Below are positions 3,543-63,375 of a stretch of DNA of 64,000 bases, piece by piece; the first letter of the stretch is position 1; each line of letters begins with the position of its first letter. A program made the translations under genes and the position numbers. Origin of the DNA: Candidatus Staskawiczbacteria bacterium RIFCSPHIGHO2_01_FULL_39_25 (GTDB taxonomy: Bacteria; Patescibacteriota; Minisyncoccia; Minisyncoccales; Staskawiczbacteraceae); contig MHOO01000011.1 of the NCBI GenBank assembly GCA_001820095.1, positions 135,227 to 199,226 on the forward strand, written 5' to 3'. Below the pieces are notes generated by a model, which saw only the letters and a program-made list of their open reading frames with translations, did not search any database and was not told the origin of the DNA.

Positions 3543-3593
3543 TTTTCTGATACGTCTCTGATGGTAGAGCCACGGGGTTCCGTGGCTCTAGAG

Positions 3594-4169
3594 ATGTATC
3601 ACATGACCAAAATTTACTTTATCATTGCGGTTCTCATTATTGTTGTTCAAATAGGAACGCTTTTTTGGCTGGGTAATTCTTTCATATGCCCATGCGGTTT
3701 GGTAAAATTATGGGGGCCGATAGTCAAAAGTCCCGAAAACTCCCAGCATCTTTTTGACTGGTACTCATTTTCTCACATCGTATATGGAATTGCAGGATAC
3801 TTTCTAGTATGGCCATTGCGTAAAAAATTTAAATGGGCGGTTACCATAGGTTTTCTCTTGGTGCTTGTATTATCGGTAAGTTGGGAAATTCTTGAAAATA
3901 CCGCGTATGTCGTTCATCATTACCAAACCAATACTATTTCCTTTGATTATTACGGCGACAGCGTGGTAAATTCTTTGGTGGACACCCTCTCTGTGGCAGC
4001 GGGATTCTGGCTAGCTTACTTTTTACCGGTATGGGCGGCGGTAGCTCTTGCCCTTGGTTTGGAAATTCTTACAATGGCGCTTATCCGTGACGGCCTTGTA
4101 TTGAATACCATTATGTTTGTTTACCCTTTGAAATCTATTGTCGCTTGGCAAGCGGCAATTATGCAATAA
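3594..4169 (+). CDS. DUF2585 (UPF0314) family membrane protein
   Basis: ICPCGLVKLWGPIVKSPENSQHLFDWYSFSHI signature; the ORF opens at 3561 but 3565-3590 is a hairpin, so ATG 3594 or 3603 is the likelier start. Confidence 0.7.
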   Translation: MYHMTKIYFIIAVLIIVVQIGTLFWLGNSFICPCGLVKLWGPIVKSPENSQHLFDWYSFSHIVYGIAGYFLVWPLRKKFKWAVTIGFLLVLVLSVSWEILENTAYVVHHYQTNTISFDYYGDSVVNSLVDTLSVAAGFWLAYFLPVWAAVALALGLEILTMALIRDGLVLNTIMFVYPLKSIVAWQAAIMQ

Positions 4170-4181
4170 TCCTACACCCCT

Positions 4182-5084
4182 ATGGCTTCTATTTATAAAA
4201 ACGCCGACAAAAACACCCGAAAAACATGGTTGTTTCTAACCTTGTTTTTGGTTTTTATTATCGCCGTCGGCTGGCTTTTCAGCTACCTATTAAACAGCAG
4301 TTTTATTTTATACGTCGCCGTTTTTCTAAGCGTTGCCATGAGCATCACCAGCTACTGGTTTTCAGATAAAATTGTGCTGTCTATGGCCCATGCCAAGCCC
4401 ATTGAAAAAAGTGACAACCCTGAACTGTACCGAATTGTTGAAAATTTGGCTATTACCGCAGGCCTTCCTTTGCCTAAAATTTATATTATCTACGAGCGGC
4501 AATTAAACGCTTTTGCAACGGGAAGGGATAAGAATCACGCCGTAGTTGCGGTAACACAGGGATTACTAGAGAAACTAGAAAGGTCAGAATTAGAAGGAGT
4601 CATTGCCCATGAACTGTCGCATATTGGAAACAAAGATATGCTATTAAGCACGGTCATTGTTATTTTTGCGGGGATTGTGGCATTGCTTTCAGATTTCTTT
4701 TTGCGCATCAGCTTCTGGGGCGGGGGTCGGAGAGATTCCGATAATAACAAGGCGGGGGCATTATTGATGGTTTTAGGCATTGCAGCCGCCATATTGGCTC
4801 CTTTGGCGGCTTCATTGATCAGGTTGGCCATTTCACGGAAAAGGGAATTTCTGGCTGATGCCGATGGCGCGCTGTTGACCCGTTATCCAGAGGGATTGGC
4901 CAGCGCTTTGGAAAAGATTGCAACCGATGTGACTCCCATGCGTTCTGCGCATGCGGCAACAGCCCATCTTTATATTGATTCTCCATTTAACGAAAAACAG
5001 AGCCACAATTGGTTTGTAAAGATTTTTCAGACGCATCCGCCCGTTGAAGAGAGAATAAAGGCATTGCGGGATATGAATATCTAA
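4182..5084 (+). CDS. htpX: M48-family zinc metalloprotease HtpX
   Basis: HELSH zinc motif, TM segments, C-terminal THPPVEERI. Confidence 0.9.
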   Translation: MASIYKNADKNTRKTWLFLTLFLVFIIAVGWLFSYLLNSSFILYVAVFLSVAMSITSYWFSDKIVLSMAHAKPIEKSDNPELYRIVENLAITAGLPLPKIYIIYERQLNAFATGRDKNHAVVAVTQGLLEKLERSELEGVIAHELSHIGNKDMLLSTVIVIFAGIVALLSDFFLRISFWGGGRRDSDNNKAGALLMVLGIAAAILAPLAASLIRLAISRKREFLADADGALLTRYPEGLASALEKIATDVTPMRSAHAATAHLYIDSPFNEKQSHNWFVKIFQTHPPVEERIKALRDMNI

Positions 5085-16779: not shown

Positions 16780-17964
16780 ATGGCAAAAAAGAAAAAACCA
16801 AGAAAATTAAAAAAACCGAAGCCCTTAAAGAAGAAAAAAGTTTCCAGAAAACTTTCTAAGACAAGGAAGCGTAAACCGGCAAAAAGGGTTAAAAAGGAAA
16901 AAATTACCCAAGAGCAGATAGATGCCCTTTTACGCAAAGGTGAAGAGCGGGGTTTTTTGACGAACTCTGAAATACTGTATTTTTTCCCCAACATAGAAAG
17001 CAACGTGGACGAACTGGAAAGAATATACGATCTCTTAAAAGAGCGGGGGGTTGCGATACGGGAGGTAAGGGAATTCTTGGAAATAAAATCCAAGAAAGAA
17101 AAAAAAGCAAAGAAAGCGGTTTTAGGCAAAATTGACCCCATCCAAATGTACTTAAAAGAAATCGGCAGGTCGGGGTTTTTGTCGGCCAAGGAAGAAAAAG
17201 AGTTGGCCAAGCGCATTGAACATGGAGAAGAGGACGCAAAAAATAAATTGGCATTGGCAAACTTGAGGCTCGTGGTTTCTATTGCCAAAAAATACATCGG
17301 CAGGTCGCCAAACCTCACGTTATTGGACTTGATCCAAGAGGGAAACCTGGGGCTTTTTAAGGCCGTGAAAAAATTTGACTGGAGGAAGGGGTATAAATTT
17401 TCCACCTATGCAACCTGGTGGATCCGCCAGTCAATTACCCGCGCCTTAGCTGACCAGGCAAGAACCATCAGGATTCCCGTGCACATGATTGAAACTATTT
17501 CAAAGTACACTAAAATCAGGAGGAGCCTTTTGCAAGAACTGGGCCGGGAGCCTTTGGCAGAAGAAATTGCCGCTGAAATGGGGCTGGAAGTTGATAAAGT
17601 CCACCACATCAGGAAAATTGCCCAAAAAGCGGTTTCATTGGAGACTCCGATTGGAGAAGATAAAGACAAGCAAGACAGCGTATTGGCAGAATTCATTAAA
17701 GACGACAAGTCAATTGCGCCAAACACCGAGGCCTCCAGAAAACTGTTGAAAGAACGGTTAAAAGAAATTTCCAGCGAGCTTACCCAGCGGGAATTAAAAA
17801 TTTTGGGTATGCGGTTCGGTTTGGAAGACGGCGTTATGCATACCCTTGAAGAAACTGGTGAAGAATTCGGGGTTACCCGCGAAAGAATCAGGCAGATCCA
17901 GGCAAAAGCTTTAGAGAAACTGCGAAGGCATTCAGACCTGAAAAAAGTACGAGACTATTATTAA
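16780..17964 (+). CDS. rpoD: RNA polymerase primary sigma factor with a Lys-rich N-terminal extension
   Basis: Regions 2-4 ([29 protein letters not shown]); starts 3 nt after dnaG. Confidence 0.95.
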
Positions 17965-18100
17965 ATTTGAAATTTGAAATTTACAATTTGAAATCAATTT
18001 TAAATAACTAAATTTGAAATGATTAAAACCGACGTCGCCTTTTCAAATTAATATATTGTAGTATTGAATTCAAATTTCAAATTTCGAATTTCAAATTCAA
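17965..18100 (+). repeat. Family-1 (TTTGAAAT-type) quasi-palindromic intergenic element, copy 1
   Basis: Fills the rpoD-pyk gap; core GAAATGATTAAAACCGACGTCGCCTTTTCAAATT flanked by complementary TTTGAAAT/ATTTCAAA arms. Confidence 0.65.
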
Positions 18101-18106
18101 AACGCT

Positions 18107-19183
18107 ATGAATCCACGAATTATTGCAACGATAGGGCCTAAATCTGAAGAATATGACATCTTAAGCCAAATGGCTGCTGAAGGAATGAATATCATGCGGG
18201 TTAATTTTTCCCATGCCACAGAATCTCAATGGCATAAAATAAAAGATAATCTTGCAAGGATAAAAAAAGAAACCGGCGCCGATATAAAAATGATGGCAGA
18301 CCTCCAGGGCCCAAGGATACGCTTGGGAGTGTTGCAAAAAGATGTAGAAATTGTGAAGGGCGCTACGTATATATTTTTTTCAGGGAAAGCGAACGTTGCA
18401 AAAAATGAACTGCCTATAGATTACCCTGACCTCCATAAATTCATTAAACAGGGGCAACCGATGTATCTTTCAAACCGTTTGGTTGAGTTGCGGGTTGAAA
18501 AAGTATCGGGAAAGAAAATTTTTGCAAAAGCTGTTACGGGCGGAGTGGCCTCAAGCAGAAAAGGCATTAATGTTCCAGAGACCATTATTGCGGGCAGTGC
18601 CTTAACCAAGAAAGATATCAAAGACGCAAAATTTGTGGCAAAAAACGGCGCGGATTATGTGTGCCTTTCGTTTGTGCAAACCAGCAAAGATGTTGAGCAG
18701 CTAAGAAAAGCGCTGGCAGATGATGCTATAGATATTATTGCAAAAATAGAAAGGGCGTCGGCGTTAGACCACATTGACAGCATTATAAAAGCTTCCAATG
18801 GAATTATGATTGCCAGGGGGGATTTGGGGATTGAAATGCCCATAGAAGAGCTTACTATTATACAAAAAAACCTCATCCGCCATGCGCATCAATACAAAAG
18901 GCCTGCCATTGTGGCAACCCAGATGCTAGATTCCATGGCAAAAAATCCGTATCCTACGCGGGCAGAGGCCGCTGATGTAGCCAACGCCATTTTTGACGGG
19001 GCTGACGCCGTCATGCTTTCCGATGAAACGGCTTCCGGAAATTATCCGGTCATGGCGGTGTCTACCATGAAAAAAATTGCCAAGAAAGTAGATGAATACT
19101 TCAATAGCACTAACTATTTTGAGCAGGCCCATGGGGGTGTGGGACTTGAACAGAACCAGCTTGAGAAGCGAAAACAGAGATGA
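18107..19183 (+). CDS. pyk: Pyruvate kinase, short form lacking the C-terminal domain
   Basis: Barrel-domain motifs (MRVNFSHA, MIARGDLGIE, MLSDETASG); 358 aa; last ~17 codons lie in the 5' arm of the element at 19133..19399. Confidence 0.85.
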   Translation: MNPRIIATIGPKSEEYDILSQMAAEGMNIMRVNFSHATESQWHKIKDNLARIKKETGADIKMMADLQGPRIRLGVLQKDVEIVKGATYIFFSGKANVAKNELPIDYPDLHKFIKQGQPMYLSNRLVELRVEKVSGKKIFAKAVTGGVASSRKGINVPETIIAGSALTKKDIKDAKFVAKNGADYVCLSFVQTSKDVEQLRKALADDAIDIIAKIERASALDHIDSIIKASNGIMIARGDLGIEMPIEELTIIQKNLIRHAHQYKRPAIVATQMLDSMAKNPYPTRAEAADVANAIFDGADAVMLSDETASGNYPVMAVSTMKKIAKKVDEYFNSTNYFEQAHGGVGLEQNQLEKRKQR

Positions 19184-19399
19184 GGTCAAGGCGCGACGAG
19201 GAAACATAGCCTTGCGCTATGTTTCCGAAGTCGCAACGCAGACATCATCTCTGTTTTCGCTTCCCTTCGGGCTCTGTCACTTGCTTGTCTTCTTCGTATT
19301 CAGAATGAAACGATGCGCAAGGCATCGTTTCATTCCTCAATCCTTGAATACAAGCAATATACGAGAGCTCAATTGGTTCTGTTCGAGTCCCACACCCCT
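19133..19399. ncRNA. Candidate structured RNA or structured element, copy A (267 nt; homologous to 62892..63160)
   Basis: 25-32-bp closing helix and two long internal hairpin domains; motifs TCAAGGCGCGA, GCAACG, GCGCAAGGC (GCAAG pentaloop) and CCTTGAA at the same relative offsets as in copy C. Confidence 0.5.
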
Positions 19400-19443
19400 A
19401 GCATCAAGATTGATTTTAGAAACTTATAAAAGATAAATTTTGC

Positions 19444-19893: not shown

Positions 19894-19981
19894 AGTGAAT
19901 ATTTTTACTATATTTCATTACATCAATTATATCATTTTTTGAAAAATCAAACAAAAACCGAGATCTAATCTCGGCAAATGT

Positions 19982-20256
19982 TGGCTCCGCAGGTAGGATT
20001 CGAACCTACGACCCGCTCCTTACACGTTGCCCCAAATTTTCAAATGGGAGTGGACTATATCTTTACCCTTGTGGGTATTTCGGTATCTAGTCTCTACGGA
20101 GCCCACGCGGCACAAAGTGCTTTGCGTGGTTCCCTCGGTATTGGCTTAGTCTTTCGACATTAGCGTTCACCGATATCCCGAAAAGTTCATTTCAAGATTT
20201 CTCTTGAAAGCTGCCTTAATCGACAGGGAGCCGCTCTACCGCTGAGCTACTGCGGA
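19982..20256 (-). tRNA. tRNA-Asn(GUU) interrupted by a group I intron in the anticodon loop
   Basis: Exons 20256-20223 and 20022-19982 join into a 75-nt cloverleaf (UCCGCAG/CUGCGGA acceptor, G73, CCA, loop CUGUUAA). Confidence 0.85.
20023..20222 (-). ncRNA. Group I intron (200 nt, no ORF)
   Basis: Exact S-element AAGATATAGTCC (complement of 20052-20063), R-like GTAGAGACTAGA (complement of 20086-20097), 5' exon ends in U opposite a GCAG guide, intron ends in G. Confidence 0.85.
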
Positions 20257-20414
20257 ATGTACTTATATATTACTAAATTATAAGAATTTTTCAATACAGG
20301 GGATAGAGAGCATTTTGGCATTCAAGCATAATCTAAAAAATCGTCAGTGTTTGCTGGTTATTTTTTTATTTAAGACTTATACTGAAAAAACAATCATCCA
20401 AAACACTTTCTCTT

Positions 20415-32429: not shown

Positions 32430-32448
32430 TAAATTTGAAATTTACAAT

Positions 32449-32948
32449 GAATCTTAGTCGAATCTAGAATCTTGTATCTTGTAGCTTGAATAGAATACGG
32501 AATTATGAATAACGATGAAAATAAAATTAAAAAATTCACTGACCTTCATGCTTGGCAGGAGGGGCATAAATTAGTCTTGATGGTATATAAAAATACTGAA
32601 AAATTTCCTGATAAAGAGCGGTTTGGAATTACAGATCAAATGAGAAGGGCGGTAGTTTCACTAACTTCTAATATAGCAGAAGGATTTTCAAGAAGATCGT
32701 CAAAAGAAAAGAACAGATTTTACTGCATGGCCCAAGCATCCTTAGTAGAACTGCAAAACCAACTTATTATATCCCGCGATATTGGTTACTTACCAAATGA
32801 TGATTTTAAAATTATTGCAGATCAGTCAATTGTAGCCAATAAACTTTTAAACGGGCTTTTAAAAGCCACAAAAGATAAAAAATTTGAGTTTTAAATTCTA
32901 GATTCCACATTCAATTCAAGCTTCTAAATACAAGATTCAAGATTCTTA
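32449..32948 (+). mobile_element. Family-2 quasi-palindromic element carrying a four-helix-bundle gene between its arms
   Basis: Left arm 32449-32504 and right arm 32895-32948 match the contiguous empty copies at 42441..42560 and 2862..2988 (inverted). Confidence 0.5.
32505..32894 (+). CDS. Four-helix-bundle protein (23S rRNA intervening-sequence protein family)
   Basis: 129 aa; FTDLHAWQEGHKL, ITDQMRRAVVSLTSNIAEGF and ASLVELQNQL motifs typical of the family. Confidence 0.85.
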   Translation: MNNDENKIKKFTDLHAWQEGHKLVLMVYKNTEKFPDKERFGITDQMRRAVVSLTSNIAEGFSRRSSKEKNRFYCMAQASLVELQNQLIISRDIGYLPNDDFKIIADQSIVANKLLNGLLKATKDKKFEF

Positions 32949-33651: not shown

Positions 33652-33794
33652 AATTTGAAATTTTCAATTTGAAATTTGAAATCAATTTGAAATTATTGAA
33701 TTTGAAATGATTTAAACCCGGCGTCGTGTTTTCAAATTTAAATATTCAATCATTGAAATATTGAATTCAAATTTCAAATTTCAAATTGAAAATT
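33652..33794 (+). repeat. Family-1 quasi-palindromic intergenic element, copy 2
   Basis: Core GAAATGATTTAAACCCGGCGTCGTGTTTTCAAATT with TTTGAAAT/ATTTCAAA arms; ends about 10 nt before ATG 33804. Confidence 0.65.
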
Positions 33795-34556: not shown

Positions 34557-34591
34557 TACTAATACTTGAATTTGAAATTGTAAATTTCAAA

Positions 34592-34727
34592 TTAAATCCG
34601 AAGCACGAAATCCGAAATCCGAAACAAATTCAAAATACCAAAATTAAAAATCAAAAAACACGTTTAGAATTTCCCGTCTTTAGAATTTAGATATTGTTTC
34701 GAATTTCGAGATTCGGATTTAGGGTTT
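34592..34727 (+). repeat. Family-3 quasi-palindromic intergenic element
   Basis: AAATCCGAAGCACGAAATCCGAAATCCGAAACAAAT ... ATTGTTTCGAATTTCGAGATTCGGATTT; homologous to 5098..5243 (inverted). Confidence 0.5.
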
Positions 34728-46520: not shown

Positions 46521-46668
46521 CTTGAATTTGAAATTCGAAATTTGAAATTTGAATTCAATATTTTAATATTTAAATGTTCCAATTTGAAAACACGACGTCC
46601 GGTTTAAATCATTTCAAATTTGATAATTTCAAATTGACTTCAAATTGTAAATTGTAAATTTCAAATTT
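46521..46668 (-). repeat. Family-1 quasi-palindromic intergenic element, copy 3 (inverted)
   Basis: Reverse complement contains GAAATGATTTAAACCGGACGTCGTGTTTTCAAATT with the same arms. Confidence 0.65.
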
Positions 46669-62623: not shown

Positions 62624-62884
62624 ATGTTCAAGTATATACATATATTATTAGCACTTCTTATTGCAGGATTCGGAGGCACTTGCGTGGCCCTAGAGCACAG
62701 TTCTTTTCAGTACCCCAAAAATTTGGCATATATGGCCTTGCCAGCATATGCTGCAGAGGGTGATATTACAGAAGCCAAAGAAATCACTGAATCTTCTGAT
62801 GAAGCTTTTGAACTTCGGAATCGTATCAATATGCTGGAGATAAAATTAAAAGGATATAGTGAAAGCGATTATTTGATAAATTAG
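62624..62884 (+). CDS. Hypothetical small secreted protein
   Basis: 86 aa with an N-terminal hydrophobic segment; no family. Confidence 0.4.
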   Translation: MFKYIHILLALLIAGFGGTCVALEHSSFQYPKNLAYMALPAYAAEGDITEAKEITESSDEAFELRNRINMLEIKLKGYSESDYLIN

Positions 62885-62891
62885 AAAATTT

Positions 62892-63160
62892 AGAGCCACG
62901 GAACACATTATAACTAGTTTTAGCGGAGCGAATTAAGCCAAGATTCAAGGCGCGAGGAAGAGATACGTACCCTCTGCGGTACGTTCTCGACGAGCAACGA
63001 AGAAGCTTGGCTTAATTCGCCCGCCCAAGGGGAAGCCAAAAAATGAATAATTTCTGCGTTATGCCTCCGAGGCGTAGCGCAAGGCTACGCCTCGTTCGGC
63101 AAGCCTTGAAATTATTTCATTTTTTGGGTTCTAAAACTAGTTATAATGTGTTCCGTGACT
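62892..63160. ncRNA. Candidate structured RNA or structured element, copy C (269 nt; homologous to 19133..19399)
   Basis: 31-bp closing helix (one mismatch), 13-bp and 19-bp internal helices; TCAAGGCGCGA 62944, GCAACG 62993, GCGCAAGGC 63076, CCTTGAA 63103. Confidence 0.5.
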
Positions 63161-63375
63161 CCAGGTTCGTAAAGAACAGTCTCACTTAATGTGGGAAGGT
63201 CGTACAAATTTCTAATTTGTATGACAGGAAAAATATAGCTCATTCAAGAGCAAAAGAGCCGCTTAAAGCGGCTCTTTTGCTCTAAACTCAATACAGAGTT
63301 TAACACCCTTTATGATAATTTGATTAAATTTTGTAAGTAATAACCAAGTCGTCCGTCATATAGTAAGAAAAATAT

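Follow-up and report, generated by a model that had tools for sequence, protein, structure and literature searches.

[quoted passage not shown] Bacterial MITEs related to the IS630/Tc1-mariner elements include Nezha from cyanobacteria and RUP from Streptococcus pneumoniae. To our knowledge, the known MITE families are confined to a genus or a phylum, and their interiors are not conserved. The Correia elements (NEMIS) of Neisseria and the ERIC/IRU sequences of enterobacteria are TA-flanked palindromes of 100-160 bp, which are co-transcribed and whose hairpins affect mRNA processing.

The window, the whole stretch of 64 kb of DNA analysed here, contains two copies, A and C, of an element that resembles the IS630/Tc1-mariner-related MITEs: it is small and non-coding, has inverted repeats, TA flanks and a CTAG-like target, forms a long hairpin and occurs in multiple copies. 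Of the repeat classes of the family, one, although not that of copy C, matches both ends of an annotated IS630-family IS. Unlike in the IS630-related MITEs, however, the same interior also occurs with IS5-family repeats, and unlike in known MITEs the interior is the conserved part, in about eight phylum-level groups. The IS5-family ISs (~860 bp) and their MITE derivatives share the terminal bases of the gammaproteobacterial members and the CTAG/TA boundaries, but the conserved module is confined to the MITE and is absent from the IS. Correia and ERIC/IRU elements are likewise palindromic, TA-flanked and hairpin-forming. No sequence similarity to them was seen (a search of E. coli gave no match), and they are single hairpins of one lineage, whereas the family described here spans several phyla, and its two covarying modules are arranged in a four-way junction.

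The REP/BIME/REPIN sequences, which RAYT transposases mobilise, and the PATEs derived from IS200/IS605 are also short intergenic palindromes, and their enzyme recognises a folded single strand; the strand-specific modules of our family suggest a similar mechanism. Unlike REP/REPIN, however, the elements have no GTAG/CTAC, no RAYT or TnpA nearby, true inverted repeats with TA flanks and a length of ~270 nt, and their two modules lie on opposite strands and not on the same one. A stable centre with swapped ends has a parallel in animal SINEs (V, CORE, Deu) containing a "highly conserved domain", in which, according to one study (PMC6887750), the central domain is near-constant and the ends that recruit the mobilising machinery are exchanged. 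The likeness, which includes being non-autonomous, is an analogy only, since SINEs are eukaryotic retroelements of unrelated mechanism and sequence.

Taken as a whole, the observations are best explained, with good though not complete confidence, by copy C being a decayed copy of a MITE with a persistent core and by a small hairpin at position 3565 being a centre-deleted remnant of such an element. The usual MITE pattern is reversed in this family: the interior (its architecture, its length of ~270 bp and its loop motif) is kept, and the repeats match two transposase families. Copy C itself would be ordinary transposon debris, and the point of interest is the wider family. If the core is functional, it would represent either a new cis-acting transposition element or a new structured nucleic-acid motif.

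Fold, orientation and condition of copies C and A

Features of copy C, copy A and the hairpin at 3565-3590 in the window
Feature	Position	Strand	Basis
TA dinucleotide, 5' flank of copy C (likely half of a target duplication)	62891..62892		sequence; family-wide TAG...CTA ends and Y-TA..TA-R flanks
Left terminal inverted repeat of copy C, 5' arm of the closing helix (GAGCCACGGAACAC...)	62893..62923		inverted repeat I6, 31 nt, 97% complementary
Domain 1: stem S1 and M_a-type module (TCAAGGCGCGAGGA...CGACGAGCAACGAAGAA), sense on +	62928..63020	+	covariance model R1, fold
Central mini-hairpin CCC-AAG-GGG at the copy C junction	63024..63032		sequence; CCC-NNN-GGG is central in two-domain members
Domain 2: stem S2 and degraded M_b-type module, sense on -	63036..63127	-	covariance model R1
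Right terminal inverted repeat of copy C, 3' arm of the closing helix	63131..63161		inverted repeat I6
CA in place of the family TA (likely degenerate 3' target duplication)	63162..63163		sequence; TGGAGTCACGG has 2 mismatches to the 5' end
86-aa ORF upstream, stop codon 6 nt before copy C	62624..62884	+	ORF list; gene called there in public contigs
Terminator-like hairpin outside the element, bidirectional, with a perfect stem of 18 bp, 83 nt beyond copy C	63247..63283		inverted repeat I21
Copy A, same family, inverted relative to copy C	19134..19398		flanks TG (19132-19133) and TA (19399-19400)
First module of copy A	19169-19259	+	covariance model
Second module of copy A	19277-19364	-	covariance model
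Mini-hairpin TA-GAGCCACGG-GGTT-CCGTGGCTC-TA, most likely the two tips of a copy-C-type element with the interior absent	3565..3590		sequence, 11-mer search

Copy C (62891-63163) folds into a four-way junction with a z of about -15 on both strands when compared with shuffled sequences. The + strand gave -151 kcal/mol against -76 +/- 5 in the shuffles (z -14.8), and the - strand a z of -17.7. The helices named in a preliminary description of the locus were found again: the 31-nt arms of the closing helix with a single C-A mismatch on the + strand, both internal helices, the second with a one-base bulge (5' arm 19 nt, 3' arm 20 nt), and the hairpin CGAGGCGTAGC-GCAAG-GCTACGCCTCG, whose GCAAG loop also occurs in copy A. 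Using the covariance model R1, which was built from 28 domains, exactly four modules were detected in the window, two in copy C and two in copy A. Domain 1 of copy C, itself a sequence of the training set, scored 83.1 bits. Domain 2, from outside the training set, scored 56.4 bits (E 1.2e-11) on the - strand versus 13.7 bits on the + strand.

Copy A folds like copy C, as judged by the fold energy against shuffles on both strands. Its second module, also outside the training set, reached 36 bits on the - strand and stayed below the listing threshold on the + strand. The description of copies A and C as having the same motif order holds only by virtue of pseudo-symmetry, because the alignment of copy A with copy C (166 identities, score 29) was improved by taking the reverse complement of copy C (174 identities, score 49.5). 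Since the element is pseudo-symmetric, copy A is homologous to the reverse complement of copy C. The neighbours of copy A are pyruvate kinase and a response regulator, and those of copy C are the 86-aa ORF and a PG-binding protein. The pyruvate kinase ORF is short (358 aa, 18107-19183) and enters copy A by 50 nt (19134-19183), so that its last ~16 residues are encoded by copy A.

Copy C is decayed: its 3' TA is now CA, one position of the arms is mismatched and the second module is degraded. With one TA lost, a mismatched arm and a degraded second module, it is probably immobile, and it probably now resides passively in the 3' untranslated region of the 86-aa gene. We saw no sign of selection on it. 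A variant of copy C in another strain (L015 2250-2541, contig ERZ28563660) is identical over the first ~117 nt and then has 10 uncompensated differences, another 3' inverted repeat (..GTGTTCAAATCCCGCACTCCTA) and another downstream context, apparently after recombination of two copies. A strain variant of copy A (L002 3484-3811, contig ERZ27254767) lies behind a different gene and has a perfect outer helix (C for T), with an extra 45-nt hairpin between GAGAAG and CGAAAAC and a junction without TA. Because both variants are rearranged at the element borders, copies A and C are recombination breakpoints between strains.

Elsewhere in the window, two solitary 14-mers (4169-4182 and 2813-2826; ATCCTACACCCCTA and GTCCAGCACCCCTA) are similar to the 3' end of copy A, each with 2 mismatches. 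The former is in the gap that separates a stop codon from the following start codon. From their sequence, they may be end fragments of lost copies.

Distribution, terminal repeats and insertion sequences

A scan of one genome per species with the blocks common to copies A and C (TCAAGGCGCGA..GCAACG..CCTTGA) gave at least 116 loci, and all 116 listed loci were fetched. Among these listed matches, about 50 of the 116 were true members, in which the module is flanked by a stem, and the rest were chance matches in GC-rich genes. The record labels of the true members span about eight phyla: Patescibacteria (several candidate phyla), Gammaproteobacteria, Actinomycetota, Acidobacteriota, Elusimicrobia, Verrucomicrobiota, Ignavibacteria/Bacteroidota and deltaproteobacterial lineages. 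Blast searches added further copies on plasmids of Azotobacter, Halomonas and Pseudomonas aeruginosa, and the culturable carriers include Marinicella meishanensis, Azotobacter chroococcum and a P. aeruginosa plasmid. Scanning viral contigs with the module pattern gave 120 loci, none with flanking stems and thus all chance matches, and the phage and E. coli collections contained no match to the element. Literature searches by sequence and by keyword returned no description of this element family.

The copies are dispersed and multiple within genomes, two of them in this window. The gammaproteobacterial class with TAGGGCCTGTTAACAC has eight copies with a median identity of 97%, four of them on one Sedimenticolaceae chromosome. 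Actinocrinis has 10 or more copies, ten of which were compared and are 95.5-98.5% identical. In all copies compared from these two groups the flanks are unrelated. Copy C measures 269-273 bp and the two-domain members 262-285 bp across lineages; one-domain members of ~160-178 bp and a 200-bp form in Actinocrinis coexist with the two-domain form. When the ORFs of 50 member loci were clustered in search of an associated protein, none recurred inside or beside the elements, and an ORF running through one candidate-phyla-radiation copy is lost in a gammaproteobacterial copy, as compared by eye. A search for large repeat pairs enclosing a gene, as expected of an autonomous form, found none. Near members in Actinocrinis and other genomes, we also noted TAG...CTA-bounded palindromes with other interiors (L133 4228-4608, L109 6418-6524, L081 6487-6648).

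Well-preserved members start with TAG, finish with CTA and have perfect arms of 20-33 nt. Their flanks are TA..TA within YTAR, with C/T before and G/A after the TA in 20 of the 23 well-bounded copies; C..G was the flank pair in 10 of the 23, C..A in 6 and T..G in 3. Beyond TA..TA, the flanks of the 23 copies do not pair. The TA..TA, which is itself palindromic, is found family-wide, with TA..CA in copy C and TG..TA in copy A, and its pattern makes a target duplication of TA likely. For IS630 elements, insertion takes place at TA, which is duplicated in the process (PMC2170065). Empty sites were found neither in population contigs nor, in the plasmid collection, around the P. aeruginosa plasmid copy. 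As no copy has an empty counterpart, we infer transposition from structure and dispersal.

The repeats led to two families of insertion sequences. The first 22 nt of the Halomonas copy, CTAGGGCCTGTTGACGTTTCAC, occur with 95-100% identity in features annotated as IS5-family transposases, which lie on Azotobacter, Aeromonas and Halomonas plasmids, and the gammaproteobacterial members have 21-22 of 22 terminal bases in common with IS5-family ISs. One such IS in Azotobacter (L266) is complete, with ~860 bp, the same repeats, CTAG boundaries and a protein with DUF4096 and DDE_Tnp_1. The CTAGTGTCCTGTCCCGCAAATA ends of two Ignavibacteria copies and one Verrucomicrobiota copy (L031, L063, L090) match both ends of an IS630-family IS on the Methylibium plasmid RPME01. 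An initial assignment of all members to the IS630 type, based on the CTAG/TA ends, was overturned by the match of the gammaproteobacterial repeat to IS5-family elements.

With the terminal 17-24 bp of two repeat classes matching the ends of IS5- and IS630-family ISs, the members of the family are MITEs, as they also are by size, inverted repeats and copy number. The module is absent from both the IS5-family and the IS630-family insertion sequences, so the interior of the MITE did not arise from either IS by deletion. Judged by sequence, one interior is thus combined with ends from two different transposase families. For the repeat classes of Acidobacteria and Actinocrinis no matching insertion sequence was found, and no transposase gene was seen within the window. 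Copy C has the end type GAGCCACGGAACA, which compares with the homologous end GGGTCACGGAACA of another member (L114); GGGTCACGGAACA and TAGGGRTGTGGGAYTCGAAC are both repeats of the candidate phyla radiation.

We propose that DDE transposases acting in trans would excise the elements of this family and paste them at TA sites; for the candidate-phyla-radiation repeat class of copy C, the link to a transposase would follow from the rest of the family. The core may be the persistent unit of selection, which would have picked up whatever TA-targeting repeats were at hand.

Several further observations concern the ends. An IS630-like IS whose transposase frame is disrupted (L135 1262-2716) has inserted exactly at the CTAG border of a member on plasmid pAcX50f of Azotobacter chroococcum, so the ends of the element attract further TA-targeting insertions. 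In the primer table of one study (PMC12457610), Legionella pneumophila primers beside lpg2920-21 contain TTAGGGTCTGTTGAC, an IS5-type end, which suggests an IS or a family member near lpg2920-21 in this model organism. The repeats of members from the candidate phyla radiation and Saccharibacteria read as the reverse complement of a tRNA 3' end (..GGATTCGAAC..), as in L021, L052, L054, L077, L111, L115 and the window (19374-19398), extending in L054 even to ..TGGTAGCCCGACAGGACTCGAAC, and two copies (L052, L057) directly adjoin tRNA genes. The likeness was discounted, as it yields no foldable T-arm and the other repeat classes lack it.

The conserved core as a possible folded DNA or RNA structure

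Between the repeats lies a core of ~210 nt, whose architecture and length are conserved across phyla. In two-domain members the outer helix is followed by hairpin 1, CCC-NNN-GGG and hairpin 2. Each hairpin comprises a stem of ~18 bp and a module reaching from TCAAGG to ACG-AGA, and within the module the helix is broken by tandem G-A pairs, after which comes an apical hairpin. The internal-loop motif reads 5'-YTCAAGG(C/A) / 5'-RACG(M)AGAR. Hairpin 2 is a reverse-complement module, so each strand reads a sense module and then an antisense module. Among the second modules, for which the search imposed TCAAGG only, RACG(M)AGAR is kept in nearly all 55.

The candidate structured family of the preliminary description is therefore real and conserved, with compensatory double changes at 24 of the 29 pairs of the domain helix and with 90.9% of the helix cells paired, compared with 59.8% in shuffles and 33-43% when the partners were slid; its reading as primarily an RNA gene was not supported. 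Watson-Crick pairs account for 697 of the 742 stem cells, G-U for 13 and A-C for 14, and a strand test counted 10 independent G-U events versus 9 for A-C, that is, no strand bias. Helices that are nearly purely Watson-Crick, with G-U as rare as A-C, have the look of a DNA palindrome and are untypical of a selected RNA helix. Such a palindrome could be under selection as folded DNA, or part of the covariation could be due not to selection but to template-switch correction of quasi-palindromes. Strand-specific features are, on the other hand, the conserved loop motif and the purine-rich region of tandem G-A pairs, the latter with G-C to C-G swaps between the module types, and for these a purely double-stranded DNA role is insufficient. 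We lean towards a role of the core as folded DNA, single-stranded or cruciform, over one as RNA. As folded DNA acting in cis, either single-stranded or extruded, or with less likelihood as RNA, the core might aid the propagation or the tolerance of the element.

Alternatively, copy C could be a structured non-coding RNA that belongs to a 3' UTR or comes from a small-RNA gene, with the transposon-like ends being incidental or a mere vehicle. The strong covariation and the conserved internal loops would fit such an RNA, as would the location of both window copies between a stop codon and an intrinsic terminator, where they would be co-transcribed. Since each strand has one sense module, an RNA read from either strand would include it, and one strand is favoured by the tandem G-A helix and by G-U/U-G substitutions at the base of the module. 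We nevertheless consider this alternative unlikely. Besides the rarity of G-U, copies A and C are in opposite orientations relative to their upstream genes, copies with 96-97% identity sit at unrelated loci, the strain variant of copy C has uncompensated changes, and there is no conserved promoter, because stems and repeats vary between lineages. With Rfam 15, at gathering and permissive thresholds, nothing overlapped copy A or C at E<=10, the only family in the window was tRNA, and six diverse members gave no match at E<=0.1. A retron non-coding RNA was rejected because no reverse-transcriptase gene is adjacent to copy A or C. A k-turn, a hairpin-ribozyme-like docking, a sigma-70 or single-strand promoter, attC, dif and an oriT nick site were dropped, as no matching consensus or context was found.

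Beyond the preferred reading of a MITE with a persistent core, the ~210-nt core might be an ancient self-propagating module that parasitises unrelated TA-targeting transposase families through repeat swaps. Its loops and non-canonical helix would then form an undescribed functional ssDNA or RNA structure, for example an aid to synapsis or extrusion or a ligand of a universal host factor. We put this forward tentatively, as a conjecture with the balance against it.

The hairpin at 3565-3590 and the window

The preliminary description had pointed out that the terminal 11-mer of copy C, TAGAGCCACGG, also forms both arms of a short hairpin at 3565-3590. The match was reproduced with the coordinates shifted by one base: TAGAGCCACGG occurs in the window at 62891-62901, 3565-3575 (+) and 3580-3590 (-) and at no other exact site. 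The hairpin is enclosed by an outer palindrome, GATACGTCTC..(TGATGG)..GAGATGTATC, of 10 bp with a 6-nt bulge.

The match might be a coincidence between unrelated hairpins, since by our estimate about one chance 11-mer match of some arm is expected somewhere in the window. A metagenome scan also found the same 11-bp stem in 24 unrelated contigs with other loops, flanks and GC content. One of the 24 has the ATGG flank too, with no homologous gene downstream, and given how common hairpins are, these contigs were rejected as a family and regarded as chance matches. For the hairpin at 3565 we find coincidence very improbable. Of the 21 perfect hairpins in the window with a stem of at least 11, it is the only one of normal sequence complexity with an arm found again at another site. 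That other site is in register with the terminus of copy C, with GTT matching additionally on the 3' side, the hairpin has the derived state GAGCC of the copy C 5' arm, and its boundaries are TA..TA. We estimate p at ~4e-5 if the match has to be terminal and in register, and at <=0.01 if it may lie anywhere in either element. Given this unique in-register match, we take the hairpin to be genuinely related to the termini of copy C.

The relation had been interpreted as insertion of a mobile core of ~245 nt into the loops of existing hairpins, with the hairpin at 3565 as an unoccupied target. The identity of its arms with the copy C termini speaks for such a mechanism, as do the nesting of the hairpin in an outer palindrome and the additional 45-nt hairpin within the strain variant of copy A. 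Nevertheless, the supposed basal stem proved to be the terminal inverted repeat of the element itself, bounded by TA, with unpaired flanks. Its arms run from TA-G to C-TA like the repeats of the family, of which two other classes match IS ends, and beyond the TA the flanks of the 23 well-bounded copies are unpaired. That the helix is part of the element also follows from the conserved lengths of the outer helix (~30 bp) and of the element as a whole. The predicted polymorphism of filled and empty hairpins was not observed: the 3565 site is identical in eight population contigs from different samples, and copy C is present in every contig that reaches its site. Insertion into loops thus has a very small probability in our assessment.

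The other possibility that had been raised, loss of the interior, is our preferred reading: the hairpin at 3565 is most likely the remnant of a centrally deleted element rather than a vacant insertion site. Long palindromes are known to lose their centres (palindrome instability, SbcCD). An element of the copy C type would have lost its centre in this manner, so that the tips alone remain. The GGTT loop has no simple derivation from copy C, and the origin by deletion is what we infer. Having ends of only 9-11 bp, compared with the 17-24 bp of IS ends, the hairpin is too short to be a transposase substrate.

For the annotation of the window, the two "RNA candidates" and the hairpin at 3565 would accordingly be labelled as transposon copies and debris. 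On its - strand, at 19981-20258, the window also contains a tRNA gene whose anticodon region is interrupted by an insertion of ~200 nt. This insertion matches the group I intron model with 46.5 bits, slightly short of the gathering score of 50, and the tRNA is not called by ARAGORN. A second, AT-rich family of palindromic repeats (AATTTGAAATTTGAAAT.., GAATCTAGAATCTTG..), the "family 2" of the preliminary description, is found at 2860-2990, 17961-18100, 32431-32945, 33652-33794, 34566-34596 and 46525-46667, and one of its repeat pairs encloses a 129-aa ORF (32505-32894).
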